Source: a virus (lineage: Duplodnaviria; Caudoviricetes). From it: DNA of 64,000 bases. This document shows, one piece after another, positions 3,180 through 48,205 of the stretch. The translations under genes and the position numbers were made by a program. Below the pieces are notes generated by a model. That model made no database searches. It was not told where the DNA came from and worked only from the letters and a program-made list of their open reading frames with translations. Numbering within the stretch: position 1 is the stretch's first letter; every line of letters begins with the position of its first letter. Where the stretch lies: IMG/VR virus record IMGVR_UViG_3300011989_000486, positions 4,313 through 68,312 of that record, one strand, 5' to 3'.

Positions 3180-3880
3180 CCTCCAAGATAGAATTTCCTG
3201 TAAGTCGGAGTGTGTTTCGGTTGGAAAGTCCCAAGCTCATCAAAGGTCTGAATAGCGTTACTGAAGAGCTGGGCATACTTCTGAGCATTAGCTACACTGG
3301 TCTGCCCGTCCATATTGGAATGAGCCATAGAAGCCACATAAAAAGACAAAGGATCCAGCAGCGCAACAGGCAGCTCAATCTCATCTATGTCTTCGCGCAC
3401 AGGCTTATGCCTTGCCTGATAGTCAACCGTAATAATTTGTTCTGGGAAGTGAGAAGGAAGTTCTAAGACGTTGTACTCAGGAGTAAATACTGATAACACA
3501 TCATTAGGATCGTTAAGCGGTATCTCAATGCCGCTGTGGTCTCGAACCAACAGGATCTTAACGATGTCCTCAGTAAAAGACGGGTCTGAATCTTTCCACA
3601 GATACTTGTCATAGCTGGGCTCATGCCAGTTGTCCATGACATGCTCTGAGGTTAATGGGTATTTAGTGCGCCCAAGCTGCGTCTCAAGAAACAGGAAATC
3701 CACCTTGAGCTGGTACTTGTTGTACAGCTCCATTAACCCTGAGTTTATATAATCAATAATCTCTGCACGATACTCAGGACTAAGCTCCCTTGAGGTTACG
3801 TCTTTAGTAACCCCAAGGTTGCGTAAGGTAGTATTAGTAAGCTTGGTGATGAACTGACCTACCTGCATAGGTTGCCTCAA
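3170..3880 (-). CDS. Head-tail connector/adaptor (N4 gp67-like)
   Basis: 236 aa directly downstream of terL as in N4-like phages; IIDYINSGLMELYNKY and ALLDPLSFYVAS adaptor-like segments. Confidence 0.65.
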   Translation of the reverse strand: MRQPMQVGQFITKLTNTTLRNLGVTKDVTSRELSPEYRAEIIDYINSGLMELYNKYQLKVDFLFLETQLGRTKYPLTSEHVMDNWHEPSYDKYLWKDSDPSFTEDIVKILLVRDHSGIEIPLNDPNDVLSVFTPEYNVLELPSHFPEQIITVDYQARHKPVREDIDEIELPVALLDPLSFYVASMAHSNMDGQTSVANAQKYAQLFSNAIQTFDELGTFQPKHTPTYRKFYLGGWV

Positions 3881-5499
3881 GCTAGGTACGATTCAAGCTC
3901 TGTGCTGTCCTCGTACAGTGGAAGATAATCATCATCTGAACCATAGATGGAATCATCTGTCCTACTGGCTTGCGGCGTTTCGGTTACTGATGTAGGTCTA
4001 AAGGTTTTGAAGTAATAGAGCTGGCTAATCGTATCAATAAAATCATCATGATCTTTAAAGCCGTCTCTTGTTGCGGATGAGATTTCTCTCATTCCCTCCA
4101 GCATTATAGCGGAAGTTTTAACTTCTTCTGGAAAATACATTTTTCCTGCTTTGAACCAAGGAACCACTAAGGCAAATCTGGATAATTTGTCAGTAATAGG
4201 TCTGATCCCAGGAACAGAGTTATTAGGGGAAGAAGATGCGAAGTTAAAGTAAATATTCCTGTTATTCATCTCCTGCTTGAGCCACTGGATAAACGCACCT
4301 TGCTGCCCTGTGACCTCAATACCTACCAGTAACGGCGAGTATTCAGAGCATAATCTGAACAGATCATTGATGTTCTTATCCATAGTCTGCTTCTGACAGA
4401 CGCCGTCCACCCAGTACCAGTCACCCTGTTCTGAGTAAGCCCATACGGATATAACCGAGTAATCAGCAGTCTGCTTTGCAGACGTAGCAAAATCAGTAGA
4501 GATGTAAAAGTTATACTTCTCTCTTTCTTTAAGCAAATTCTTGCGTGAATACCACTGGATTTCAGAGTCCTGAATAAGTCTGTTCTCAGCAGTATTGATG
4601 CGCAGCATCAACTCTTGCTGGAAGCCGTCCAGCTTGCCGTTCATGACAGCAGAGTCATACTGTTCTTTTACATACTCATACGGGAACCTGTCTTCCCACA
4701 GACCTTTAAACTCTGCTTTGGTTACGGGGAATCTTTCACAGATGGGATAGGCATTGACTTTCCATGCGCCTGAAGCAATGGCTTCAAGCATAATGTCCTG
4801 CCTGTTAAAGGGAGTGCCGTTGAGAATAATCTTGTAATGGTTTGGGTCCAAGGCATAGTTAATGCCCTTATAGACAATCTCCTTAATCATCGCCATGTCA
4901 GCCAGAGACTTGGCAGAGCTGTCGCTGATTAAGTCATCAAGAATAGCAATACATGGTCTCTTGCCGAACAGCTTAACGCCACGCACACCAGTAGTAGCGC
5001 CAAAGAGTCTGACACCCAGCTTCTTGCCGTTGACATTGGTGAACTCCAGATAGTTGTCAGTAAAGTTCTGAAGTTTGGGCGGTAAATACGTCTGCAAGAA
5101 CTCAGAGTTCTCATAACGGTACTGGATATTCTTACGCAAAGACTTAGCGCCGTTTTCCATAGAGTCCGACACATAAAGCATTCCTGAGACTTCACCGAAC
5201 CCAGGGATCTTGCCCACCATAGCCAAATACAGGATTAAGTACTCACCCATAAGCGTAGTCTTACCTGAGCCACGGGCACAGATATTCACGATACGCTTGG
5301 AGCTACTCACCAGTCCGTCCAGCATCTTCAGATGAAACGGCGGCGTCTTGTTTTCTTCACCTTTGTTGCCGTTGAGCAGCTTGATGAAATTCATTACGCC
5401 CAAGGCAAAAGTCGTAGGTTTGTAGTGATTAAGCGCCTCGTAGTCCAGACTATCTAAATAGTCTTCTAGGACTCTGGGCTTTTGGTTCGGGTTTGACAT
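3877..5499 (-). CDS. terL: Terminase large subunit
   Basis: Walker A ARGSGKT, Walker B ILDD, C-motif GTP, nuclease STDFA and HDDFID. Confidence 0.95.
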   Translation of the reverse strand: MSNPNQKPRVLEDYLDSLDYEALNHYKPTTFALGVMNFIKLLNGNKGEENKTPPFHLKMLDGLVSSSKRIVNICARGSGKTTLMGEYLILYLAMVGKIPGFGEVSGMLYVSDSMENGAKSLRKNIQYRYENSEFLQTYLPPKLQNFTDNYLEFTNVNGKKLGVRLFGATTGVRGVKLFGKRPCIAILDDLISDSSAKSLADMAMIKEIVYKGINYALDPNHYKIILNGTPFNRQDIMLEAIASGAWKVNAYPICERFPVTKAEFKGLWEDRFPYEYVKEQYDSAVMNGKLDGFQQELMLRINTAENRLIQDSEIQWYSRKNLLKEREKYNFYISTDFATSAKQTADYSVISVWAYSEQGDWYWVDGVCQKQTMDKNINDLFRLCSEYSPLLVGIEVTGQQGAFIQWLKQEMNNRNIYFNFASSSPNNSVPGIRPITDKLSRFALVVPWFKAGKMYFPEEVKTSAIMLEGMREISSATRDGFKDHDDFIDTISQLYYFKTFRPTSVTETPQASRTDDSIYGSDDDYLPLYEDSTELESYLA

Positions 5500-30439: not shown

Positions 30440-31354
30440 ATGAAACAGTACTTAGATCTGCTAGAGGACATTCTTGATAATGGCATTAAGAAACAGGACA
30501 GAACTGGAGTAGGCACTCTGTCTGTGGTTGGTCGCCAGATACGATTCAACCTACAGGAGGGATTTCCCGCTGTTACTACCAAGTCTTTGGCTTGGAAGTC
30601 TGTAGTTTCAGAGCTTCTCTGGTTCATGGAAGGCTCTACTAACGAGCACCGACTGGCTCAGATTAAGAATGACAACAGACCATATGACAAGCTCACAGAG
30701 AAGGAGCGTCATACGATTTGGACTGCCAATTTTGAGAACCAAGGAAAAGCTTTATGCTATTCAGATGGTGAGTTAGGACCTATTTATGGCAGACAGTGGC
30801 GAAATTATACTGGCGTAAATCGTTTTGGATTGACTTCTCATTGTGACCAGTTAGAAAAAGTCATTAATGAGATACAGAACAATCCCTGGTCTCGCAGACT
30901 TATTGTTTCAGCATGGAATCCCACTCAAATACATGAAATGGCTTTACCTCCTTGCCATCTCATGTTCCAGTTTGTTGTGGAACCAGGATACGGAGAGCAC
31001 AAAGACAAGCCTACTTATCTGAACCTGATGTGGACTCAGCGAAGCTGTGACGTGTTCTTAGGTTTGCCTTTTAACATTGCCAGCTACGCGTTGTTACTGA
31101 GTATTGTTGCGAGGATTACGCATTTAGAGCCTAAGACTCTTGTAGGTTCTCTGTGTGACACTCATATCTACCTTAATCACTTAGACGCTGTGAAGACTCA
31201 GCTTAAACGTAAACCTTATCCGTTACCTAAGCTGACACTCCCTGCTGCTGATTATTACTCACTATTCTCATTCATTATGACTTCAAGATGCTCAGACTTT
31301 AAGCTTGAGCACTATTTCCATGATGCTGCTATCCCAGCACCTATGGCTATTTAA
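30440..31354 (+). CDS. thyA: Thymidylate synthase
   Basis: DRTGVGT, MALPPCH, QRSCD, GLPFNIASY, HIYLNH. Confidence 0.97.
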   Translation: MKQYLDLLEDILDNGIKKQDRTGVGTLSVVGRQIRFNLQEGFPAVTTKSLAWKSVVSELLWFMEGSTNEHRLAQIKNDNRPYDKLTEKERHTIWTANFENQGKALCYSDGELGPIYGRQWRNYTGVNRFGLTSHCDQLEKVINEIQNNPWSRRLIVSAWNPTQIHEMALPPCHLMFQFVVEPGYGEHKDKPTYLNLMWTQRSCDVFLGLPFNIASYALLLSIVARITHLEPKTLVGSLCDTHIYLNHLDAVKTQLKRKPYPLPKLTLPAADYYSLFSFIMTSRCSDFKLEHYFHDAAIPAPMAI

Positions 31355-34054: not shown

Positions 34055-37000
34055 TTACAGTAAGCCGAACAGCTTGACCCAAGGGTTAGCTGTGAAAATG
34101 CTTGATAACATCCCCGGTCCTATTGAGTAACCAAGCACGCCTAACTTACCAAATAGTGAATCTACTAAAGGTGAGTTAAGTCCGCCAGTAGCAAATGCCA
34201 GAGTAGCCAACGGCTTTTCTCTAAGCATTCTTAAAGCCACTTTCATCATACGCAGCTTGAAGTTGCTGAACCAGATAAGTCCTATACGCTCAGCAAAGTC
34301 TCTGGTACGACCAGGAAGTCTGACGTAATCAACAAACTCTTCTGAGACAGTGTAGTGAGCATCTTCCTGAGATTTATGCTGCCTTTCAGTTAAATCTTTA
34401 AACAGAATAGCTTTACCTAAGAAGTCGCCGTACTGGTTCATCTTTTCAAGGAACTTGTACAGGGAAGTATCAGGAGCCACCATTCCGTAGTGAACAAATG
34501 ATTTAACGATTTCATTATTGGATAAGCTGTCCAGCTTCTCCATAATCTTGTCGTCAAGCGACATCTTGCCACTAGCAATATCACGGACATCATTGCCTAA
34601 ATCAGCAATAGAGGAGAACTCTTTTTGCTTAATTAGGTAGCTAATAGACAGTCCATCTATGGCGTTCTCAAGCAGTCTCTTACGAGATTCAAGCTGAGCT
34701 CTGTCTCTACTGCCAATGTACATAGAGCCAAGCTCTGTCTTTACTTGCAGTAAGTCACTTCTAATCTTTAAGTATTTATCAAGCTCATGCAGTACATCTT
34801 TGGTATAGCGGAACATTGATGATACAGGTACACCTTCCATAGCGAGCTGTAAGTAGTTAGCCCCCATATTGGACACAGGTACATTAATAGACCTAATAAT
34901 GATGCTATTCTTAGCCATCTTTACTAAGTCCTGAGTAATGTTTTCTACCCGTTTAAGTCTGGCAAAAGCTTTCTTGCCAAAGACCGCTTCAGCACAATGA
35001 GCTATAGCATTAGTCACAGCAGGATTAAGCCTGGTTTCACCAGTCCACATGTCAGTGATAGATATGGAGTGATATCCAATCACATCATTAACCTGTGAAC
35101 GAAGAACCATGAACTTGTTGGGTCCGCCATAAGCTTTGGAAATAGACTTAATCAGCTTACGCGGCATTAAGTCCACCATAGCTTTTACCGTAGGATCTTT
35201 AATATCAAAGATATTGACGAAATCCTTTGGCTCAGCATCTAACGTGGAATCAGGTTTATTGGCTTCATCCCAGAAGTCAGCAAGTCTGTTTACCAGCTCA
35301 TTGTTTAGATTTTCAGCAAGACTTTCCTCTTCATTACGACCAGCCTGACGAGCCAAGAGCTGTGCATAGTCTTTCACAGGATTCAGATACTCATTGTTAT
35401 TGAGTAAATCTGGATTAAGAGACCGCTCAAAGGCTATGACATCGCCATTGCTTCCGAAGATAGGAATTAACTCCTCTTCGTTAGTGGCATACTCTCTGCC
35501 TTCACTCATAGCAGTGAGGATCTTGTCAATGGTGTTACTGTTAGTGATCACACCAGCATTAGGAGCCAGAGATACACCTGAGAAAGCGTTAATGCCGTTA
35601 CAGGTAGTACCAACATACGTTAATCCGCCTGCATTAAGTGCAGAGGACGTATCAAGCTTGCTGTAATAAACACCAAGAGATGCAAAATCCATATTTGAAC
35701 CATGGTACTGGTCAATAAGGGTATACCCCTGAGCTTCCATTGCATCCTTATCAGTTAAAGGCGCTACTTTGAAATGTCCGTCATCTTTCATGATGCTAAA
35801 GGTGCTGCCTTTAATCCAATTGTAATTACCTCTGTTGTAGTTTTGAGCTTTATCAATACCGTCACGATACTGTTTCTCAGCAGTACCTAAGAGGTATTTC
35901 ATACCATCAGGCTCTTTATCCAAAAGTTCTGCAAGCTTATATCGGTCAGACTTGCTAAGCATCTGCACAGCATACATGCTTGTAAGCTGGTCACAGGCAT
36001 TAAACTCTTCACGAGTAGGTGCATAAAGAGAACCATCAGGAGTAAAGCCTGCGGCAATAGCCATAGGATTCCTGAGCAGGAATTTACCTACTTTACCAGT
36101 CATCATGTACTCAGCTAACTGTTTACATTTAGCCTGACGATACTTATCAGTAATAACTGTTTTTAATTGGTTCATCTCTTCGTAGAAGACATTGTCATCT
36201 ATGAGCAATAAACCAAGTTTTGCAGGGTTGCCTTTCATTAAAGTAGACAGGCCAGTCTTGCCAACAGCAACTGTAAGTTTTTCCCAGGTCTTCTTAGACA
36301 GAGGGACTTTAAAGCGTTTCTTAATCTGCCCAGGGAGCAAATCAATAGCTTCCTGACGATTTTGGTCAAGAGTGATCTTGATTTTAGTAATTAAAGCCTG
36401 AGTCTTATGCGTTTCCTTGGTTCTGCCTATAGTGTCATTAAGAAGCTCTTTAGCAACATGCGGCATAGCTTTCATGTTGTGAACACTGTTATTTAAAGTA
36501 TTGGCTTCTGCTTCTATAGCAGCATTTAACTCATCAGTATTACTGGCATGAGTAACCTTCATAAGAGCTTCATTAATCTTAGAAGACACTGCTAATTCGG
36601 CATTGTCGCGGAAGCGCTCAAGATATGAAGTCTTGTCATAGCTTCTGGAGCAGCTTTCCAGCTCGCCCAATAAACGAGTAAGAGCTTCATCATAGTTCTT
36701 ACTGTATTTATTAGGTTGCTTGCGTATATCGGTGAACCAATTACGCATACCACGGATAGCAGAATCAAATGCTTTGTCTATGCTCAGATACCCGCGAGTA
36801 TTGTGAGTATTACGTTTCTCCATATTAGAGAGCACACGCTTAAACTCAGGGTCGGTTTGAGCCAAAGCAAAGATAACCGCAGTAGCTTCACTAGGATTGA
36901 ACTTAGCCTTTCTGTTTCTGAACCCTTGCAGCATCTTACAGAGATTCTCAGCTCTCTTTAACTGAGAGCTTGCATCTACACTGCCTTTAGGTGCAGTAAC

Positions 37001-40000
37001 AAATTGCTCAGGAGTAAGTTCACCTATTACATGAGCAGCAGCTCTGGCTACATCTACATAGAACGGAGCTTTGATGTCTTTAAAGAAAGACAACATAGCC
37101 ACAGTCTGTGCAAACTCTTTAGGCTCACCAGTCTTGTAACCTAAGTTATGAATTGGTTTATAGAACCTGGTTAAAGCATTACTTGAATACTTGGCAAATT
37201 TATTTCCAATATCAATGTTTTTCTTCAGAGTATCTGTATCAAAATACTGGAAACGTTTTTGAACCAGGGTATCCAGATTGTTATACAAATCTGTTAAAGG
37301 GCCATTGGTTTCACTATCTGACGGCTCAGAGAATTTAGCATGATTGGTTCTGGTAAAGAATCCAAAATCAATTTCAGACTGCACTCCGGCTTCAGTATTC
37401 TCATCTACAGACTGTTCTGCTGTTTCAGTGGATTTAGCTGTTTTATTGTTTTTCTCTTCAATATAAAGGGTATTAGTGAGAGCTACGTTTGCCTGAACCA
37501 AGTCTCTGATCATGAGATTGCGTCTGTCAGTACCAAACAGTCTGCCAAAGAAATCCATAAGGAGATTCTTTAAAGACTCAATAATGCGACCAATCTTGGA
37601 AGCACTGGTTTTAGTTTCAGAGACTAGATTGTCTAACTCGCGGTTAAGCTTAGCATTATCAGTTAAGACATTCTTCAGACGTTTTAATTCCGCATTGCTC
37701 ATAGTACCGAAGCAAGCTAAAAACTCCTGAAGTGCCCCATTAGATTCATTTCCTCTATGCCCCTGACTTATATAGCTATATAGCTCAGGCATAGTGTCAC
37801 CGCAGGACTTGCTTATTGATGAGGGAAGCTCATTATCAACAAGCTGCTTTAATCTCTTGATGCGATTAACGGTGGCAAAGGCTACTTTATCATTATCATC
37901 AGTAAGCTGGTTCTTATCAGTAATACCCTCAAACTTATCTAAGTAGTGTTTAAGTGTTGACCAAGCAAGTGCGTGCATGATTTCATGAGGAATTACTTGC
38001 TCAGCAAGGATTCTCTCTTCTCTGGCACTGACTGCTGCTGCACCACTAGTAGGAACTATATAAATGCAATTTGTATTAGGTGAGTAAAACTCAACAGGAT
38101 CATTTTCATGACCAGGTTTACCCATCTGCATATACGTAGCTTGGATTTCTGAAGGAAGAGCATTAAGACCTTCCTTTTTAAAATCATGCCCAAAATCTTC
38201 AGCTACAACTTTGGCAAAAGCTTGTTTAGCTTTGCCATAAGTTGACCCAGTGATGACTTTTACCTTGGTCTTATCATTTAAGCCTTTTACTTTAAAATCA
38301 TGGAAGAAGGTTGACAGCATCCTGCTAACATGGTTTCTGTCATCATTAGAGCCTAAATTTAAGATCTTTTGTGCAGAATACTCCTTAACATTTTTGTTAT
38401 CTGCTTGTTCTTGATGCAAGTACTCTAAACCCTGAGTAGTCTCAGGTTCAACGTATTCACAACGTTTCTGAACCAGCTCAAGTAATTCTTTAAGAACTTT
38501 ACCGCGAGCTGCCTGAATCTCTGGATCGTTTACAGCAACAGGGTCTTTCTTAATAATTTCAGTTATCTCGCACAGTCTCTGGTACGGGCAGTGAGGCTTG
38601 TTAAAGACAGTCTTCCATAAAGCTTCTTCAGTGAATCTGCCAGACATCTTTAAATTCAGGCTGGTTAGCATGTCATGGAACTCTGCCTGATGCTCAATCG
38701 GATTAAACACAAACGGTTTATCGTTTGAAGCCATATGATCAAAGGTTCCACCCATAAGCCATTTAGCAGCCTGAATGTAGGAAATATTCCTGGCACACTC
38801 ACCCATATTCTGAGTAAGATTATTGAAATTACTAAAGAGTAATTCTTGGATATCCTGTGCAGTTAGCTGATCAACAGTCTTATAGGTATCAGCATCGTAA
38901 GTGATGTCTATATGGTTATTTTCATCAGGTTTACTCTGAGTAATTTCCGTAGTCATATTAGACATTAGGTTTAAATACTCTTTAAGTTCAGTGATGTATT
39001 GATCTTTTACTTCATCAGTAGATTGATACCCTTCAGGATAACTGCCTTTATTCCGACCAAAGTTAATAGTGAAACTAGAAGGATCAATTTTTTTATCTTT
39101 AAATAATTTTGCAAATCCATCGTAATAATTGCCATCTCCTACAAGCGTACAAAATCGCTGGAAGACAATTTTTTTGACTGCTTGTTTAACATGAAAAATG
39201 TCAGCTTGATTGCTATTAAAGCAATCATTTTCATAATAAACATAGCGATTAGGGTCTTTTTCCACAAAGTCCTTTATCTTAGCTGCTCTATCTGCAAATA
39301 ATTCGTTAATAGCGTCTTCATTCTCTGAATCTGACAGGCTTGCTACTTTGTCATTCCACTCAGCTGCACGAAGCTGTAAATAGCTATTTGTTAATGCATT
39401 AACAGGGGTTTCATTTTTTACAAAATCACTAAGATTCTGTTTCTCCATTTTTAAAACATTAACCATATTACTGGTGATATTTTTAAGCAGAGTTTTACCC
39501 TGTTCAGTAGCAAAATACTGTTGAATAGCTTTCAGCTTTTCCTGGAAAGAGATGAGATTGTTAGTCTGGTTTGTTCTCCACTGAATTTCATTGATAGATT
39601 CACCAGCTTCCTGTAACTGACCAACAGCAGCATTTAAACCATCAAAGATGAGGGTTACTGCATAGTGCAGTTTTTTCATAAACTCAGGATCGGTTAAAGC
39701 ATTAGTCATCATTGAGGCATCACCAGTAAGAATGGTGAGTAACGGAATAATAGCTACACCTGGGTTATCCAGAGTATTAAACTGAATTTCTTTAAGGTGT
39801 TTACCTCTGTATTTAATTTTATTAACATTATTGTCTTCGCTATAGTGTGTATACCTGGCAAAATGCTCAGGATTATTTAATGAACCACCTGCATCAACCT
39901 GTTTAGAGGTCTTAGAAGACGGAGCCAAAGGTAAAACACCAGTTTCAAAATCAACACGATTGGAAAGAGGATTGTCTTTGCTGTTAGGCTCACCAAGCCG

Positions 40001-43000
40001 TTTTTTAGCTGAGCCAGTGGTTTCAGTATACGGATCAAACTCATGACGATACTGAATACCTGCCAAGTTAATGAGAGTAGTCACTAACGAACTAAACGTT
40101 CTAATGGTGTTTTGGGTCTTAGCAACACCATCACCACGGACTACTTCACGCATAGCGTTGTAAATAGGCTTTCCATAAACAGTCTCAATAGCATCAACTA
40201 AGTGCTGAGCAAACGGGTCTTTTAAACTAAAGCCTAAAGGTGCAACTGTCCAAACGCGTGCTTTTTTCTCTTCTTTATTTGCAGTCTCATTAAGCTCTGC
40301 ATCTTTAGCAGCTTCATCGTTGTCTTTGAGCTGCTTAGCCATATATGCAGTACGCATATCAGGGCTCATGAAAGAAGCAATTGAGAACTTCTTAAAAGCG
40401 CGAGTGTTTTTACCTTTGCATTTGCATGGATAAGTCATTGCACCATAGTCATGCCCTGCGTAACGACCTTTAACCTGTAACGTAGGAGGGTCATCTTTGG
40501 TTTCACCCTGCCGCACTACCAGCTCGGTCTGCATGAGCATCTGCAAAGCAGCCATGTAGGCATTTAAATTGTCAAGATAGTCTTTATCAGACCATTCTTC
40601 AGTGCCTTTAAGACTTCCAAACATGGCTTTGGCACAGATAAGATCAAGCTCTTCGCCTTCAGGCATTTCATCAAATTTGCCTTCATATTTGGCTAAAGCT
40701 CTGCGAACCGCAGTGGCTTTTTGATGCATATCATTGATAATGCCATTGCAGTTTCTTGAACCAACAAGCAAGCCTGTGCAAATAGACCTAAGTCCTGCAT
40801 AGTAGCCACCCTTAGTTACAGGGTCTTTCATGAAGGTACGAGAGATTTTTTCCTGGAGCTCAGATATGGCATCTTTGGTCATACCTGAAAGTCTGAATAG
40901 GTCAGATAAAGCACCTAAGAAATTAAGCGGATCTTTAAAAGGATTTTTTCTAACATATTCAGGAGCATCTCTAAAAGGCTTAACAATATAACTGTTGTCA
41001 CTGGAAGAAGGATCTTTATAAGTAACAATATGGTTATTTCGGTTGTACCAGCCATTACCTTCTGTGCTGAATTGTGAGTTCATTGCATCAGAAGCTAATT
41101 TGCCAACTAACTCATAAAGGTCTCTGTTACCGTCAGTAAGCCCATCTTTTGAAATGCCAGCAGGATTGCCTGAGTAGTCTCCAAGACGTTGATTGCCTTT
41201 ATCAAGCAAAGAGATAAGAGTTTTACCGTCATCTACAAGCTGAACCGTATACAGGTACTGGGCATTAATAGGACCGTTAGTTGTACCGTCAGCTTCACAG
41301 TAAATACTGGTAGTAAACTCAGTCTGATTTTCCTGAATGGCTTTGACATAACGAGCCAAAGTCTCCATTGCATGAAGTCCCATAAAGCTCTTATCTACTT
41401 TGGAGAGGTCAATACCGTTTTCACCAAACTCTTCTTTACCATCAGTGGTAAAGAAATCATTAAGCTCTTTAAAGGCATTCTGCAAAGACTCAGCAGTAGT
41501 GCTGGCAGGCTTAGTAGCAAGAGCCATAACATTGGTATATCTTGCAGGGCTTGCAAGCATGTCCCGAACCAAGGCATTAAAGGCAGCACTGGTTTTTTCA
41601 AAGTCTTTCTTGTTAAGATGCCCGCCCATGTTCTGGATAATGGCTCTGGCTAAGTCATCCTTGGCTTTAGCATCAGACATGCTAAAAGTGTTCCAAGTAG
41701 GCAAGAAGATTTCACGGGTTACTTTACTGGTAACAGGACCACAGGCTTCAAGTTCCTGGATACGTCCTGCTTTTGTAAAGCCAATCTTGAAATGTTTGGC
41801 AATCTGAGAAACAGGAACACCTTGAGCAATAGCTTCATTTGCAATCTGCTGATACCAGACCTGACACTGCCTCATGGCAGTTCTGATACTTAGATTGACA
41901 CTTTCTTTGGAAGCACGGTCATCTGGATCCATATGCTCAGCATCATGAGTGTCTTCACCTAAGACAGACACCACACCGTCTTCACCGAGACCAATATTGA
42001 TAATTGCATACAACCCGGTATCGCACATGAACGGGATTTTTTCATATTCCTGAGCTGCATGACGCTGTTTCTCAGTAGTAGCAAGCTGAGTATGCAGAAT
42101 GTACTTAGGAGGATCACTAGGCTCAAATTCAGAGCCAACATACGAAACCCTGCCAATGTTATCTGCATTCTCATTCTGTAACAGGTAATCCAATCCAGCG
42201 GTATTCTCAAGTCGTTGTGTCGGGTTGAACAGAGCAGAATTTAAAGCAGACCTATCATAAGTAACCGACCAGACGGTAATACCATTACCAATAGCATCAA
42301 AGTCATGGCTTTCAATGATGTTTGCATCCTGTAACCCGCCAACAAGCACGTCTGCCATCAGGTTCTCAACTTGCTGGGCAGTAGCATACTCAACCTCATT
42401 GCTGAACCTAAGCCCCATAGACTTATGGATATCACCAATAAGGCTGTTATAGAGCTGAGTTTCAGTAGAACCCTGGCTTAACTGTTCAAGCAATGCCATG
42501 CCTTGGTTATTGCCATTACTGTCAATATAGTCATGGCGCAGCTCATATTCATCCATATCTAAGGACTGAGCCAGTCTGTCCCAGTTACCAGTATTGGCAA
42601 AGGTATGGTTGAAATGCGCCATACCATTAAGGAACAGGTTCATAGCGACATCTTCATCAATCACCAGCTTGGGTTCTTTTGCAGAAGTGTCAATATCGCA
42701 GAAAGCCAAGACAGGGAATGCTCTGAGTAACTGAGACATTTCACTGTTGGAAATCTCAGTACCAGTCTTAGCTGAATCAAGCAAGACTTTTAAAGCTTCT
42801 TTAAAAGTGATTCTGTTTTTAGCAGCTATCTCATAGAATGGAGAAGCATTATCTGAAGTCCTGAAAGGAGCTTTGTAGCCTTCATTTATAGTGCCTTCAA
42901 GCAGAGCATTGATACAGTTTTTAATCTTGTTAAAGTCACTGTTTTTGTTAGTAGTATCTAACGCCTTTAACAGTCTGATAGCATCAGAGCGTGAAAGATC

Positions 43001-46000
43001 TTTGGTTCCTGGATTGGCTTTAAAGATTGAGCTGTAAATTGCATTAAGTAACTGTCCTTTGGATTTAAAGCTTTCTTTCTGGAAACCAAAGAGAACTCTG
43101 CGAGATTTTCTGAGAGTGTTGATAACAACATTCCCAGAATCAGCCATGCTGCTGAGAGTTTCATCTTGTTTATGAGTTTTAAGGAACTCTTTGCCAGATG
43201 CTTCAATTTCAGCTCTTTGCCGTATGTACTCAAGACTATCTTTTGTAGACTTTTCATCAGTCTTCCCAACAAGCTTATTGAGCTGTTTATCCAAGCTCAT
43301 CAGCTTATGCGTTACAGAATCAAGTGCTTTAGTAATAGATGACTTGCCTGCATCTACAGCATTTAATGCACTCTGCGAATCTGAAACAAATGTGTTATTA
43401 GAAGTTTCAGCAGATACTTGAGCAAGATCAATTTGACGTAAAAGTGCAGGATAACCATTTTTATCGTCAGTAATATGGAGATATCTGTCTCCTGAATCAC
43501 CAGCAAACGGATCTACTGATTTCTGATTAGTAGTAAGTATTTTACGTAACGCATTTAACCGTTCAATTTTCTTATCAGGCGAGAGCCCAAGGTCATTGCT
43601 GATTTCAGAAATAAGATCTGAAGTAATAGCAGGAACATACTGAATTTCCTGAGCTTCTTGAACCTCAAGGACTTTAGTCAGTTTTTCAAAAGCTTTATCA
43701 CCAGCTTCTTCATTTTCGGCATTACGAACATCTTTCAACAGGTCTTGCTGAAGATCAGTCAGAGCTCTTGAGACTTTATCGTTGTATTTACCTTGCTTAG
43801 CAAGATCTGAAGCCAAAGTCAGGAAAGTAGTAAAACCTTCATCATCGTCAGGCTTAGGCAGCTTAATAGCAGCAGTATCATCATCATTGCCTTCAGTCTC
43901 AGGAGTATCCTCTGGCTCTTCTTCCTGATGCTCCATGAGCCACTGAGCATACTCTTCATCGGTTTCTTTAGGGTCGCCAGCTTTGAGCATACGCTCAGCT
44001 AACACTTCTCTGATGACAGTGCCATAGCTGAAGTGCTGGTTATATGTCTTACCGTTATAGATATAAGAATCTTTGTCATAAGTACCAGTATTCCAGTCAA
44101 CCAGGTTAATAGATGCATGTTCATTGAGATTATCAGCTAAGTTATCTATAAACGTACTGGCGTCACTAGAGACATTTAAAAATTCCCTATAGGCTTCTCT
44201 GAAGATTTTTAATCTGGCGTCTTTTTCAGAAATTACTTTACCGTTGTATAAGTACCCAGTAACAAAGTCCTTATCCTTATCGGCTAAGCTCTTTCTGTAA
44301 GCAAGGAGATCTTCTTTACTGGCATTAAACAGCTCAGGATTGCCTTTAGGATGGTCTTTAGTGCACTGCAAACCAAATACAATGCCCATAACTGAAGTGG
44401 CAGCTTTACCCTTCATTCCAGGAACATGTAAAGGCTCTTTGAGTTTGTATTTCTCTTCAGGGAACGGAGAAACAGGCAAACCAGTCTTAAAGTGCTCAGG
44501 AATGCCTTTTGAAAGCTTATTTCCACTAATATTGAACCAAAGTTGATGGGCAGCTTTTTTGGTGCGCCCATATCTCTCCATCTGTTTAATAGAGACTACT
44601 GATAAGTAACAATGGTTCTTAGCAAAAACAGCGTTTACCTCATCGTCATCAAGATAGCGACCTTTAGCTAAATCTTTTTTAGCAGTTTTATATTTATCGT
44701 TCCATTTACTGGTATTTACCGTGATTTGCTTTTTAACAGTTTCAGGCTGCTTAGCAGGTTCTTTACCTTTATTTGAATCAGGTTCTTTGGACTCTCCAGC
44801 TAAATCACTAGCAGAAATAGTCCCATGGTCTTTATCCTCTGAACCAGAGTCCTCATCTCCTTCTTCATCATCTTCAAGCTCAAAGCTTTCTTCACCATTC
44901 TGAGGAGCTTTGGTATCCGAGCCAGATTCAGGCTCTTTTCCTTTTGCACCTTCTTCGTCAGTGTGTACAGGACCTGAGACAGAGCCTATATTGTTCTCAG
45001 GACTTTCAGGAGCTTTAGTTCCTTCTTTAGAACCTTCTTTGGATTCACCTTTAGGCTCATCTTTAGATGAAGATGAAGGCGGAGTAGCAGTATCATCATC
45101 TTCGCCATCATCAAGCTCAAAATCATCTGGACTGTAGTCTTTACCCTCGTCTTCGTCTTCGTCAGATTCTTTTCTGTTATTTATATATGATGCGTACTCA
45201 GATTCAATGTAGTCTCTGCTGGTAAAAGGATCTGCTTCAGAATCATATTCATCTACATTAATATCGCAGTCACCTTGTCCTAAATCTCTGGCTTGCTTTA
45301 AGAAGGCTTTGTACAGAACCTTAAAGCCGTCAATTTCATCAGCTATATATTTAGCCAGATCAATACGCCCAGCATAAATACCAGGCTCTACCTTAACAAA
45401 CTCCTGTTTTTTGGAATTCCAAGCGTTATAAGGGATACATTTAGCAGCTACTTCAGCTTTAGTCGGATATCTGCCAGTACGCAGCTTAAAAGCTTCAACG
45501 CGGTTAGTGTAATCTCTCTTAGATTCACCAAATTTTTTAAGTTTATTTTGAAGTGTCTGAATGAACCTAGCAGTCTGGTATAAGACAGCACTGCGCTCTT
45601 CGTTGGTTTTTGCAGAGTTGTACTTAGTAACAAGTGAGTGCATGGAGACTTTGTTAGAGTCATTCCCAACAAAGCCGCTATTAATTTCTTCAGCTACCTG
45701 TTCAAGAGTTTTATGCCTACCTTTCTGACCCTTTTTCTGATTAATGATCTTGTTATCTTTAGCAATTTCAGCATTAATTTGCTGCTGTTTCTGCTCAGCA
45801 TGATTAATACGAGACTGGAATAAGACAGTAGACTCAATGTCCTTCTGAAGGTTGTCATACTGGTCTTTATTCTGACCGTTTTCTTTGTACTGTTTAATCA
45901 GCTCTTCAGCTTTACTTAACTGCTCAGGAGTAGCCTGGTTACGCCAAATCAGATGTTTATAAGCATCAAGCACTGCGCCTGCTTGCTGTTCTTTTTCCTC

Positions 46001-48205
46001 ATCTGAAAGCTTCGAGTTATTAAAGATACTGGCTAAGTCATCAGTAGTCTTAACGGTTTCCTGCGCATACTTGTCGGCATTGTCAAGAAGCTGTCGGTAC
46101 TTAGGCTGGTTAGCCAATCTCTGATAATTATCATAGGCAGTAAGGATACGTTCTTTAGCTGCCTGGGTCTCTTTAGAAGATGCTGTGATAGCGTTAGCTA
46201 TCTCGTCACGACTGTATTTACTGCCAAATAACTCTTCGTGATAATCACTCAGCCCTTTAACAGCCCTGAGTATATTGAACTTAGTAAGAGAGTCTTTGGT
46301 ATCACCAGCAGTGAATTTACCACCTGAAGGTTTCTTACCCTCAAGGGCATCAGAGATAATCTGCACATTGCGGTCAAAGGCTTCAAATTTGTCATCACCT
46401 TTTTCAGGTAAGACAAAACCTTTCATTGTTGAAGCAATATGCTTGGCTTCTTCATCAGACTGAACAGTCGGGTTAAAGTTTTTAATCTTGTCAAAGACTT
46501 CGCTAGTAGCAGCTTTAACATTAGCAGACTGTTTCTGCCCGTTATCATCAACGCTATCTTCAGCAGGCTGAGAAGCTCTGATGGCATCCACATCAGCAGC
46601 AGCGGTCTTAATACTATTAACCGCTTCAGCTTTATCCTTGGCTCTGAAATGAGCGCCAAGAGTGGAGTCATAGACACCTTTAGCTGCTCCAGCAACTGCA
46701 CCCAAACCAGCAGCACCAGCAGTTTTAAGAACAGAAGGAATTACTGCTTCAGCAGCAGATGCAGCCACTCCACCAACAGCAGTAGTAGCTTTGCCAACTA
46801 AGCCAGCAGCTTTAGCCAAGGCTGAATCTTTACCACCAGCCAGTAAAGCATGAGGACCGCCAGCAACGCCTGCACCAATGCCAGCAGCAATACCCTGCTG
46901 ACCCATCTGAGCGCCAACACCCTCCAGTAAATCTTGGTCGTTGTTGTAAGTATTACGGGCAGCTATGTTTGCACCAAACTGGTCTAAGCCTTCAGCAGAT
47001 TCCTGTGCGCCTTCACCAACGATGCTCTTAACACTGGATCTGGTGAACTGACCAGTAAGCGGCTTGGCTAAGACAGCCTTATCCATAAGCGTACCTGCTG
47101 CGGCAGCAATAGGTGCAGCCATAGCAGATGCTTCGTAGTAAGCCCTGTTAGCAACGTCTTCTTTGGCTTTAAGAGCAGCTTCTTCAGGAGGGAGACCTTG
47201 GTTAATGTAATCAGCTTTGAGCTGACGGAACAACTCACTGTTCTGTTCAAGGTCTTCCGTAGAGGTATTCATGGCTGCGTCATAAGCCTGCATACCTACA
47301 GAACCGCCTTCCTGAACAGCAATATTAGCTGGATAACTGCCTGCTACTTTCTCAAGAGTAGAGAGCTTAGTAGCTTCTTCACCTGTTTTACCCGCAGCAG
47401 CGGCAGCAGCCCTGGCTTTAATAGCTCCATTAGCTAAGCCAGCGGCTTTTTGAGCTAACTTAGTCTGCCAGCCCCAAGCAAAAGTAGAAGCCAAACCAGC
47501 GGCAGCATCTGTCATTAAAACGTTAGGATCAGTAAGTTCATTAGAAACACCTGAACCAAGGTCTTTAACAAAGCGTCTAAGATGCGCTTCGGTAGGACTC
47601 ATGCCATTAGCAATATCACGTTCTTCATCAGCTTTATGCTGCGTTTCATCTAACTGATTGCGTAATTGAACAATTCGCTGACCTTCTTGGACATTATCAG
47701 AAGTTAAAGCATCAGCAGCAGTTTGCAGACCATTAGTAAGAGTACTAAACCCTTTATTAAAAGCTTTACTAGCAGCGCCACCAGTAGCAGCATTAATAGC
47801 TAAAGTTACTGGGTTGTAATTAGCGGCAACATTGGCGGTACCTAATAAACTCTGTCCAACAGCGTTTAAAGCACCAACTGCGGTATCTCCTGCTATTTCT
47901 CCAGCAGTACGTTCATAATTCTGCTGTCCAATGAGTGAATTTTCTGAACCGCCCATTCTGCGTATAGCTGTGGCTACATTTTCATCACCATATTGCTGTT
48001 TTAATTCAGTAAGACTGGTTCCATTGACATTAGCGTCATACATAACCCGTTCATCAGGATTAAGTGCATCAGGGGTTTTCTGATCAATAGCAAGAGCTAC
48101 TTTCTCGCTATCAATATTATTAGGGTTAAAAGGACGACTATTTTGAGAAGTCTGAGACTGGTTCTGCTGAGCAGACTGTGCTGCCATTTCAAGCAATGAA
48201 GGCAT
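34055..48205 (-). CDS. Virion-encapsidated RNA polymerase (N4 gp50-like), 4716 aa
   Basis: FTKAGRIQ, motif A EADGTTNGP (D2306), motif B RTFMKDPVTKGGY (K2460), motif C IFDG (D2855); N4-type C-terminal region. Confidence 0.95.
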   Translation of the reverse strand: MPSLLEMAAQSAQQNQSQTSQNSRPFNPNNIDSEKVALAIDQKTPDALNPDERVMYDANVNGTSLTELKQQYGDENVATAIRRMGGSENSLIGQQNYERTAGEIAGDTAVGALNAVGQSLLGTANVAANYNPVTLAINAATGGAASKAFNKGFSTLTNGLQTAADALTSDNVQEGQRIVQLRNQLDETQHKADEERDIANGMSPTEAHLRRFVKDLGSGVSNELTDPNVLMTDAAAGLASTFAWGWQTKLAQKAAGLANGAIKARAAAAAAGKTGEEATKLSTLEKVAGSYPANIAVQEGGSVGMQAYDAAMNTSTEDLEQNSELFRQLKADYINQGLPPEEAALKAKEDVANRAYYEASAMAAPIAAAAGTLMDKAVLAKPLTGQFTRSSVKSIVGEGAQESAEGLDQFGANIAARNTYNNDQDLLEGVGAQMGQQGIAAGIGAGVAGGPHALLAGGKDSALAKAAGLVGKATTAVGGVAASAAEAVIPSVLKTAGAAGLGAVAGAAKGVYDSTLGAHFRAKDKAEAVNSIKTAAADVDAIRASQPAEDSVDDNGQKQSANVKAATSEVFDKIKNFNPTVQSDEEAKHIASTMKGFVLPEKGDDKFEAFDRNVQIISDALEGKKPSGGKFTAGDTKDSLTKFNILRAVKGLSDYHEELFGSKYSRDEIANAITASSKETQAAKERILTAYDNYQRLANQPKYRQLLDNADKYAQETVKTTDDLASIFNNSKLSDEEKEQQAGAVLDAYKHLIWRNQATPEQLSKAEELIKQYKENGQNKDQYDNLQKDIESTVLFQSRINHAEQKQQQINAEIAKDNKIINQKKGQKGRHKTLEQVAEEINSGFVGNDSNKVSMHSLVTKYNSAKTNEERSAVLYQTARFIQTLQNKLKKFGESKRDYTNRVEAFKLRTGRYPTKAEVAAKCIPYNAWNSKKQEFVKVEPGIYAGRIDLAKYIADEIDGFKVLYKAFLKQARDLGQGDCDINVDEYDSEADPFTSRDYIESEYASYINNRKESDEDEDEGKDYSPDDFELDDGEDDDTATPPSSSSKDEPKGESKEGSKEGTKAPESPENNIGSVSGPVHTDEEGAKGKEPESGSDTKAPQNGEESFELEDDEEGDEDSGSEDKDHGTISASDLAGESKEPDSNKGKEPAKQPETVKKQITVNTSKWNDKYKTAKKDLAKGRYLDDDEVNAVFAKNHCYLSVVSIKQMERYGRTKKAAHQLWFNISGNKLSKGIPEHFKTGLPVSPFPEEKYKLKEPLHVPGMKGKAATSVMGIVFGLQCTKDHPKGNPELFNASKEDLLAYRKSLADKDKDFVTGYLYNGKVISEKDARLKIFREAYREFLNVSSDASTFIDNLADNLNEHASINLVDWNTGTYDKDSYIYNGKTYNQHFSYGTVIREVLAERMLKAGDPKETDEEYAQWLMEHQEEEPEDTPETEGNDDDTAAIKLPKPDDDEGFTTFLTLASDLAKQGKYNDKVSRALTDLQQDLLKDVRNAENEEAGDKAFEKLTKVLEVQEAQEIQYVPAITSDLISEISNDLGLSPDKKIERLNALRKILTTNQKSVDPFAGDSGDRYLHITDDKNGYPALLRQIDLAQVSAETSNNTFVSDSQSALNAVDAGKSSITKALDSVTHKLMSLDKQLNKLVGKTDEKSTKDSLEYIRQRAEIEASGKEFLKTHKQDETLSSMADSGNVVINTLRKSRRVLFGFQKESFKSKGQLLNAIYSSIFKANPGTKDLSRSDAIRLLKALDTTNKNSDFNKIKNCINALLEGTINEGYKAPFRTSDNASPFYEIAAKNRITFKEALKVLLDSAKTGTEISNSEMSQLLRAFPVLAFCDIDTSAKEPKLVIDEDVAMNLFLNGMAHFNHTFANTGNWDRLAQSLDMDEYELRHDYIDSNGNNQGMALLEQLSQGSTETQLYNSLIGDIHKSMGLRFSNEVEYATAQQVENLMADVLVGGLQDANIIESHDFDAIGNGITVWSVTYDRSALNSALFNPTQRLENTAGLDYLLQNENADNIGRVSYVGSEFEPSDPPKYILHTQLATTEKQRHAAQEYEKIPFMCDTGLYAIINIGLGEDGVVSVLGEDTHDAEHMDPDDRASKESVNLSIRTAMRQCQVWYQQIANEAIAQGVPVSQIAKHFKIGFTKAGRIQELEACGPVTSKVTREIFLPTWNTFSMSDAKAKDDLARAIIQNMGGHLNKKDFEKTSAAFNALVRDMLASPARYTNVMALATKPASTTAESLQNAFKELNDFFTTDGKEEFGENGIDLSKVDKSFMGLHAMETLARYVKAIQENQTEFTTSIYCEADGTTNGPINAQYLYTVQLVDDGKTLISLLDKGNQRLGDYSGNPAGISKDGLTDGNRDLYELVGKLASDAMNSQFSTEGNGWYNRNNHIVTYKDPSSSDNSYIVKPFRDAPEYVRKNPFKDPLNFLGALSDLFRLSGMTKDAISELQEKISRTFMKDPVTKGGYYAGLRSICTGLLVGSRNCNGIINDMHQKATAVRRALAKYEGKFDEMPEGEELDLICAKAMFGSLKGTEEWSDKDYLDNLNAYMAALQMLMQTELVVRQGETKDDPPTLQVKGRYAGHDYGAMTYPCKCKGKNTRAFKKFSIASFMSPDMRTAYMAKQLKDNDEAAKDAELNETANKEEKKARVWTVAPLGFSLKDPFAQHLVDAIETVYGKPIYNAMREVVRGDGVAKTQNTIRTFSSLVTTLINLAGIQYRHEFDPYTETTGSAKKRLGEPNSKDNPLSNRVDFETGVLPLAPSSKTSKQVDAGGSLNNPEHFARYTHYSEDNNVNKIKYRGKHLKEIQFNTLDNPGVAIIPLLTILTGDASMMTNALTDPEFMKKLHYAVTLIFDGLNAAVGQLQEAGESINEIQWRTNQTNNLISFQEKLKAIQQYFATEQGKTLLKNITSNMVNVLKMEKQNLSDFVKNETPVNALTNSYLQLRAAEWNDKVASLSDSENEDAINELFADRAAKIKDFVEKDPNRYVYYENDCFNSNQADIFHVKQAVKKIVFQRFCTLVGDGNYYDGFAKLFKDKKIDPSSFTINFGRNKGSYPEGYQSTDEVKDQYITELKEYLNLMSNMTTEITQSKPDENNHIDITYDADTYKTVDQLTAQDIQELLFSNFNNLTQNMGECARNISYIQAAKWLMGGTFDHMASNDKPFVFNPIEHQAEFHDMLTSLNLKMSGRFTEEALWKTVFNKPHCPYQRLCEITEIIKKDPVAVNDPEIQAARGKVLKELLELVQKRCEYVEPETTQGLEYLHQEQADNKNVKEYSAQKILNLGSNDDRNHVSRMLSTFFHDFKVKGLNDKTKVKVITGSTYGKAKQAFAKVVAEDFGHDFKKEGLNALPSEIQATYMQMGKPGHENDPVEFYSPNTNCIYIVPTSGAAAVSAREERILAEQVIPHEIMHALAWSTLKHYLDKFEGITDKNQLTDDNDKVAFATVNRIKRLKQLVDNELPSSISKSCGDTMPELYSYISQGHRGNESNGALQEFLACFGTMSNAELKRLKNVLTDNAKLNRELDNLVSETKTSASKIGRIIESLKNLLMDFFGRLFGTDRRNLMIRDLVQANVALTNTLYIEEKNNKTAKSTETAEQSVDENTEAGVQSEIDFGFFTRTNHAKFSEPSDSETNGPLTDLYNNLDTLVQKRFQYFDTDTLKKNIDIGNKFAKYSSNALTRFYKPIHNLGYKTGEPKEFAQTVAMLSFFKDIKAPFYVDVARAAAHVIGELTPEQFVTAPKGSVDASSQLKRAENLCKMLQGFRNRKAKFNPSEATAVIFALAQTDPEFKRVLSNMEKRNTHNTRGYLSIDKAFDSAIRGMRNWFTDIRKQPNKYSKNYDEALTRLLGELESCSRSYDKTSYLERFRDNAELAVSSKINEALMKVTHASNTDELNAAIEAEANTLNNSVHNMKAMPHVAKELLNDTIGRTKETHKTQALITKIKITLDQNRQEAIDLLPGQIKKRFKVPLSKKTWEKLTVAVGKTGLSTLMKGNPAKLGLLLIDDNVFYEEMNQLKTVITDKYRQAKCKQLAEYMMTGKVGKFLLRNPMAIAAGFTPDGSLYAPTREEFNACDQLTSMYAVQMLSKSDRYKLAELLDKEPDGMKYLLGTAEKQYRDGIDKAQNYNRGNYNWIKGSTFSIMKDDGHFKVAPLTDKDAMEAQGYTLIDQYHGSNMDFASLGVYYSKLDTSSALNAGGLTYVGTTCNGINAFSGVSLAPNAGVITNSNTIDKILTAMSEGREYATNEEELIPIFGSNGDVIAFERSLNPDLLNNNEYLNPVKDYAQLLARQAGRNEEESLAENLNNELVNRLADFWDEANKPDSTLDAEPKDFVNIFDIKDPTVKAMVDLMPRKLIKSISKAYGGPNKFMVLRSQVNDVIGYHSISITDMWTGETRLNPAVTNAIAHCAEAVFGKKAFARLKRVENITQDLVKMAKNSIIIRSINVPVSNMGANYLQLAMEGVPVSSMFRYTKDVLHELDKYLKIRSDLLQVKTELGSMYIGSRDRAQLESRKRLLENAIDGLSISYLIKQKEFSSIADLGNDVRDIASGKMSLDDKIMEKLDSLSNNEIVKSFVHYGMVAPDTSLYKFLEKMNQYGDFLGKAILFKDLTERQHKSQEDAHYTVSEEFVDYVRLPGRTRDFAERIGLIWFSNFKLRMMKVALRMLREKPLATLAFATGGLNSPLVDSLFGKLGVLGYSIGPGMLSSIFTANPWVKLFGLL

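Follow-up and report, generated by a model that had tools for sequence, protein, structure and literature searches.

What is a globular domain resembling the DUF6939 family doing inside an RNA polymerase that a phage packages and injects into its host? The question is raised by a 64,000-nucleotide stretch of a Caudoviricetes genome (positions 4,313 to 68,312 of IMG/VR record IMGVR_UViG_3300011989_000486), the whole of which was analysed and is called the window below. A single uninterrupted open reading frame (ORF) of this window (34055..48205, on the minus strand, as are all parts of the gene given below) encodes a 4,716-amino-acid (aa) N4-type virion RNA polymerase (vRNAP), a polyvalent injected protein, and some 250 aa of it form the module in question. 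A preliminary description of the DNA had placed a DUF6939/NADAR-like domain at 43990-44615, which corresponds to aa 1197-1405 of the vRNAP, and had proposed that it might be an eraser or decoy co-injected with the polymerase. The reading favoured here, which is considered fairly probable, is that the module is a passenger of NADAR fold, decayed and without catalytic activity, which rides in the length-variable tether of this polyvalent vRNAP.

The module stands out in the composition of the vRNAP, which is acidic over aa 1013-1158, normal over aa 1159-1410, and acidic again over aa 1411-1455. The first linker (44732..45169) is of low complexity, has 9-13 D/E residues per 30 aa, and is rich in S, G, K, and P; the second (43841..43975) has 13 D/E residues in aa 1411-1440. 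Between them lies the globular module (43976..44731), a degenerate DUF6939/NADAR-like domain as judged by Pfam, profile searches, and structure prediction. This profile agrees with the acidic spacers that had been proposed at 44720-45200 and 43840-43930, and the discrete module between acidic linkers in an injected vRNAP is thereby upheld. No real tandem repeats were found in the linkers, and acidic runs of this kind were seen in none of 47 other N4-like vRNAPs. A check for recent transfer gave a GC content of 0.36-0.42 for the module, the same as that of the surrounding gene. Where complete, the vRNAPs of the 47 relatives are 3,437-3,946 aa long. The distance from the N-terminal block to the polymerase core is 563-1,175 aa among the relatives and in the window vRNAP exceeds that of N4 by about 700 aa; because it varies in this way among relatives, the module can be assigned to a length-variable tether.

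DUF6939 (PF22075) was the best of 24,736 Pfam models for the module; the piece alone scored 21.4 bits (E 2.2e-4), with aa 1260-1375 aligned on profile positions 42-152 of 167. On the whole 4,716-aa protein the match had 15.8 bits (E 0.011), and PF22075 gave E 6e-6 when searched in six frames against the phage's own record; the same search of 47 other N4-like phage records yielded no match at E <= 0.01. DUF6939 members were gathered from Bacteroidota genomes, a large protein collection, deposited phages, and IMG/VR, the word-indexed searches covering protein lengths of 99-396 aa. Own profiles made from 18 diverse members and from 78 members (<70% identity) gave the module 11.7 and 15.6 bits, respectively. 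Across the 4,716-aa protein, they matched at the module site only and in the same register, and when every long reading frame in the 64 kb was compared, the two highest-scoring windows were those that cover the module. With these two profiles, the real score of the module was attained by 0/5,000 shuffles. Three independent profiles, hhalign, and MAFFT agree on one register of the module versus DUF6939. The five motif pairs listed in the preliminary description were all found, in the order given there, when the module was aligned to real DUF6939 proteins that were fetched: VSPF of the module versus LSPF, LHVPGMKGKAATSVMGIVFGLQ versus IPIPFSEGQTAMSVEGIWQGLK, DARLKIFREAY versus SARKEIYLPIY, INLVDWNT versus LVLLDYET, and FSYGTVI versus LSHAFLV.

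The fold was predicted with AlphaFold2 (AF2). Using a 73-member DUF6939 alignment, aa 1190-1410 were modelled with a predicted local distance difference test score (pLDDT) of 84.6 and a predicted template modelling score (pTM) of 0.83. When this model was compared with 48,161 chains, NADAR 8BAT, YbiA 2B3W, and NADAR 8BAU held ranks 1, 2, and 4, and the matches in BFVD were uncharacterised proteins of giant viruses (E 2e-4) together with several that bear the name NADAR. As modelled, the sequence of the module is compatible with the DUF6939 family fold.

Could the resemblance to DUF6939 nevertheless be coincidental? In that case, a globular domain particular to this lineage and of unrelated origin would sit in a fast-evolving tether, and AF2 would merely thread it onto the family whose alignment it was given. 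A number of results weigh on this side and against the kinship. The PF22075 score of 21.4 lies below the Pfam gathering cut-off of 27 bits, hhalign of the module versus DUF6939 gave E 0.005 with a probability of only 7%, and the module received no score from a narrow profile based on 120 close bacterial DUF6939 proteins. All significant similarity is carried by the C-terminal half (aa 1321-1410, 43976..44245), which on its own had 12.4 and 17.9 bits, attained by 0/3,000 shuffles; the N-terminal half (aa 1190-1320), in which the active-site motif is expected, was on its own no better than shuffles. In a six-frame search of the phage's own record, neither PF08719 (NADAR) nor PF22397 (NADAR-DarT1) matched directly at E <= 1. 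Searched by itself against PDB sequences, the module returned nothing relevant, and the protein atlas had no usable match for it or for aa 600-1012. As for the structure, AF2 run on the single sequence of the module gave an unusable model (pLDDT 35), Foldseek of the alignment-based model versus the PDB found nothing significant, YbiA being the best by TM-score, and the confident model is driven by the DUF6939 alignment and is not independent proof.

The low Pfam score is itself weak evidence against kinship, because genuine phage members of DUF6939 with an intact motif score 16-42 bits on PF22075 (the lowest 15.9-19.2), so that a score below the threshold is normal for divergent members. Chance would, moreover, have to account for the first place of DUF6939 in the Pfam-wide scan, for the fact that independently built profiles reproduce place and register within 4,716 aa, for the failure of every shuffle to attain the real score, and for the lack of a match in all of the control phage records (0/47). 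The five motifs are collinear and have family-like spacing, and helices and strands follow one another in the same order in the poor single-sequence model and in the family-driven one. Coincidence is therefore regarded as unlikely, and the module is quite probably a true homologue of DUF6939. Its affinity to the family is real and beyond chance, but membership is weaker than had been claimed, given the score below the cut-off, the hhalign probability, and the N-terminal half that is not significant. The NADAR/YbiA-like fold that had also been put forward finds support in the ranks of the NADAR and YbiA chains, but not in Foldseek, and it comes from an alignment-driven model. Two other matches were dropped as too short and weak: a GAD-domain match at aa 1188-1239 (17.9 bits, below the cut-off) and one of 24 residues to phrog_6221. 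PADLOC and NCBIfam gave nothing for the module and nothing for true DUF6939 members.

DUF6939 behaves like a sister family to the NADAR antitoxins, with DarT as its partner. Five bacterial contexts of the family were examined (L005:636-2287, L007:216-2163, L153:1499-3681, L156:1515-3603, and L155:1-4107). In four of the five, the DUF6939 gene begins at or a few bases from the end of a DarT-domain gene; these upstream genes match PF14487 with E 1e-17 to 3e-29. In the fifth, it lies amid Macro, DUF4291, SIR2, metallophosphatase, and a Pfam NADAR gene. A search of all PDB sequences with the DUF6939 profile gave one relevant match, the NADAR of Geobacter lovleyi (8BAT, E 2.4e-4), in which SVESAFQSSKVFE aligns with SVEgiWQglKVFe of DUF6939, and several members have weak or precomputed matches to PF22397, the 'DarT1-associated NADAR antitoxin'. 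DUF6939 looks like an unnamed DarT antitoxin family; in Pfam, it is still annotated as of 'unknown function' though it is DarT-partnered, NADAR-like, and widespread in bacteria, large phages, and giant viruses.

The DarT genes linked to DUF6939 often have a long N-terminal extension, their proteins being 357-500 aa in length. In large phages and giant viruses, free-standing DUF6939 genes of 140-250 aa are common, and all of the viral members examined (78/78) were free-standing. A divergent phage-type motif, N-M/V-E-N-L/A-W-Q-x-S-K, was observed; members of this type are free-standing in large phages of Erwinia, Dickeya, Ralstonia (phiRSL1 ORF086), and Klebsiella (L015-L022, L023-L102) and occur on at least 113 IMG/VR contigs, giant-virus bins included. 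They are likely to be orphan anti-DarT erasers beyond the published set to which the phage NADAR AdfN belongs.

Does the module still have what such an eraser needs? Of the 78 DUF6939 members, 77-78 share the E, W, Q, and K columns of the motif E-x2-WQ-x2-K as well as a C-terminal His. The alignments place SVMGIVFGLQ (aa 1271-1280, 44366..44395) as the remnant of SVEGIWQGLK of DUF6939, in the half that was located by collinearity and is not significant alone. E has become M1273, W V1276, Q F1277, and K Q1280, and the C-terminal His of the family has become Y1394; M..F..Q had already been read in place of E..Q..K in the preliminary description, correctly so. The changes affect functional positions only, and the bacterial-type scaffold letters SV-GI--GL are kept around them. 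Also retained are the S, P, and F of SPF, A1330, R1331, I1334, Y1339, L1356, and the invariant D1370. The C-terminal block of DUF6939 (L.Y..AR..IY.P.Y, a strand ending in the invariant Asp, and a final helix) is present, with one Y changed to F.

NADARs have a catalytic, ADP-ribose-binding Glu and Lys seven residues apart, with which Met and Gln of the module are aligned. In the NADAR of E. coli C7, an E88Q change is inactivating and K95 is essential for phosphate coordination (PMC11543638). The E36A and K43A mutants of phage AdfN fail to rescue phage growth, and by two-hybrid assay neither DarG1 nor AdfN associates with DarT1 (PMC11257639). Because the published mutants are dead and the antitoxins do not bind DarT1, a copy that lacks E and K has no known route, by hydrolysis or by binding, to neutralise DarT. 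No DarT gene was found in the phage record. With Glu, Lys, Trp, Gln, and His all replaced, and with DarG1 and AdfN showing no DarT1 association, the idea of a co-injected eraser or decoy is not borne out.

The favoured reading, a decayed passenger, can be put as a sequence of events. A DUF6939 domain of the DarT-antidote type may have been captured as cargo into the variable, disordered tether between the N-terminal injection region and the polymerase core. Because DUF6939 is NADAR-like and in bacteria usually lies right after a DarT gene, this ancestral cargo was most likely an ADP-ribose eraser, which would have been delivered with the first DNA. The scaffold would have been kept, and five family-invariant residues of the presumed ADP-ribose pocket would since have been lost (E, W, Q, K, and H to M, V, F, Q, and Y). 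With these pocket residues replaced, both binding and hydrolysis of ADP-ribose have most likely been lost. The module presumably continues to be carried into the cell with the polymerase to which it belongs, and the acidic linkers would let it fold independently of its neighbours. Its present role would be non-catalytic, that of a folded spacer in the tether or of a binder of another partner, and not that of a DarT antidote.

Alternatively, the module could be a working counter-defence factor delivered by the virion, acting by hydrolysis with substitute residues or without catalysis. In the non-catalytic versions, it may shield or bind the single-stranded DNA (ssDNA) promoter that is used by the vRNAP and attacked by DarT, or it may bind the DarT partner of bacterial DUF6939. 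Such a factor would fit the DarT link of the family, the retention of the invariant D1370 and of the ARxxI...Y block, the confidence of the AF2 fold, and an ORF that is intact, though phage genomes tend to lose useless DNA. Free-standing phage NADARs are known to defeat DarTG1 (PMC11257639), and effector domains, ART (ADP-ribosyltransferase) among them, are known from vRNAPs (PMC5512222). Against this stands the module's replacement of every family-motif residue (E, W, Q, K, and H). NADAR mutants with E changed to A or Q, or K to A, are inactive both in vitro and in vivo, and because the Lys coordinates the phosphates of ADP-ribose, binding has probably been lost too. The absence of a two-hybrid association of DarG1 and AdfN with DarT1 is a further point against a working factor. 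In N4, only few vRNAP copies enter each cell, which is insufficient for a stoichiometric sponge.

A working factor of this kind is thus held to be quite improbable. The same has to be said, if anything more firmly, of a specific form of it, in which a NADAR-fold domain has swapped catalysis for binding and protects the first ssDNA promoter from DarT-type ADP-ribosylation or neutralises the DarT partner of bacterial DUF6939. If true, this would make the module the first anti-DarT factor delivered by a virion, and the first pseudo-NADAR to have a defined role.

Two considerations tell against a merely decayed passenger. The well-packed fold that has been kept in a phage gene argues for an unnamed function. 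In addition, the module is a singleton, so that conservation and selection cannot separate the readings. A phmmer search of 1.84 billion protein representatives retrieved only the protein itself, as did word-indexed searches at near and giant protein lengths. Neither tblastn of the module nor megablast of the 5' end of the gene gave a match among 50,697 phage records, and no relative of the module was found in a collection of 5.8 billion clusters or in the 47 N4-like vRNAPs.

The polymerase that hosts the module was identified by its match to phrog_2206, 'virion RNA polymerase', over aa 1451-4713 (E 1e-298), and by two Pfam domains whose scores in the 4,716-aa ORF exceed the Pfam cut-offs. These markers of the polymerase core are vRNAP_dom_2 (PF21867; aa 2047-2166, 41708..42067, E 1.5e-9) and vRNAP_dom (PF21769; aa 2817-2941, 39383..39757, E 2.9e-7). 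Blocks common to 47 IMG/VR vRNAPs were found by BLAST at aa 11-580, about 1800-2900, and 3600-4716. Because the N-terminus, core, and C-terminus align with these 47 relatives, the long ORF can be taken as one genuine vRNAP. Its identity to any deposited or IMG/VR N4-like vRNAP is only 22-30%, and no close relative was found in the IMG/VR search. The conserved N-terminal block of N4-like vRNAPs (aa 11-580, 46466..48175) has 25-31% identity by BLASTP to the corresponding ends of 38 relatives. The vRNAP gene is flanked by N4-type structural genes, among them those for the portal and the major head protein. The protein thus has the N-terminal injection region and the C-terminal encapsidation region of a vRNAP, and its gene lies in the structural block.

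The public gene call for this protein, P0002 (4,412 aa), begins 304 codons downstream of the first ATG and leaves out aa 1-304 (47294-48205, minus strand). The longer ORF, and not the start of P0002, is taken to be real because aa 11-300 are homologous to the N-termini of other vRNAPs. About 470 aa past the polymerase core, an HExxH motif was noted, HEIMH (aa 3407-3411, 37973..37987), in a region that no Pfam model recognised. By this motif match alone, its position is that at which N4-like vRNAPs carry a zincin-like metallopeptidase domain. An HEXXH/metallopeptidase (MPTase) domain is present in N4 gp50 and likewise in other polyvalent vRNAPs (PMC5512222). The remaining tether, aa 600-1012 and 1456-1800 (42800-46400, minus strand; ~750 aa), has no detectable relative in other vRNAPs, in Pfam, or in the protein atlas, and it may harbour further unrecognised passenger modules.

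The virus record, of 68,312 nucleotides, is taken from a gut-metagenome contig of 206,697 nucleotides, about three times the length of the phage, and this N4-like genome is labelled 'provirus' in IMG/VR. N4-like phages are usually lytic, and the label may stem from an assembly concatemer or chimera rather than from integration. The thymidylate synthase gene of the window (30440-31354, plus strand) has its sole relatives in a genome collection among Chitinophagales metagenome-assembled genomes (44-45% identity), which gives a weak hint, from sequence relatedness, at a Bacteroidota host. Bacteroidota are also the source of the bacterial-type DUF6939 members.

Among known systems, the closest setting for the module is that of the N4-like vRNAPs described as polyvalent proteins with extra domains, such as lysozyme, BECR-fold RNase, and ART (PMC5512222). 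The window vRNAP resembles these in being a giant packaged and injected polymerase that has an injection region at its N-terminus, a core of T7 type, and a region bearing an HExxH motif. It differs from them in that its additional domain lies in the N-terminal tether with a long acidic linker on either side. An ART fused to the vRNAP of Roseovarius Plymouth podovirus 1 was reported by Iyer, Burroughs, Anand, de Souza, and Aravind (2017; PMC5512222). In both polymerases, a globular domain from the ADP-ribosylation conflict toolkit has been added, but the one in the window belongs to the erasers (NADAR-like/DUF6939) and has lost its catalytic residues. The domains listed in that paper do not include NADAR, a term with 0 occurrences in it.

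Free-standing NADARs of phages form the second group for comparison. AdfN (T4 gp30.3), NADAR-Bas32, and NADAR-Bas60 belong to the orphan NADARs (Johannesman, Carlson, LeRoux 2024; PMC11257639). Like these NADAR-fold proteins derived from DarT antitoxins, the module has structural matches to the same 8BAT, 8BAU, and 2B3W. They are expressed after infection and need Glu and Lys, whereas the copy in the window forms part of a virion protein and has neither. In comparison with DarG1 (Schuller et al. 2023; PMC11543638; 8BAT; PF22397), the module has Met and Gln as the equivalents of E88 and K95, does not match PF22397 or PF08719 directly, and comes from a phage in which no DarT gene was found. With Pfam DUF6939, it is collinear over the profile positions given above and shares the AR..I...Y, the L.D, and the helix. 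DUF6939 proteins are free-standing (~170-230 aa) and in bacteria are encoded downstream of DarT; the module, in contrast, is embedded in a protein of 4,716 aa.

A NADAR-like domain in an injected polymerase would join two known ideas, that of injected proteins which carry effectors and that of free-standing phage NADARs which defeat DarTG. It would also point to a past in which the antidote of some phages reached the cell before gene expression began. The main value of the module, as a single, apparently inactivated copy that has no relatives, is to exemplify how a domain can be captured into the variable tether of a vRNAP and decay there. Cargo in a polyvalent vRNAP is known as such, and NADAR-like cargo adds a variant to it, one that is probably inactive in the present case.

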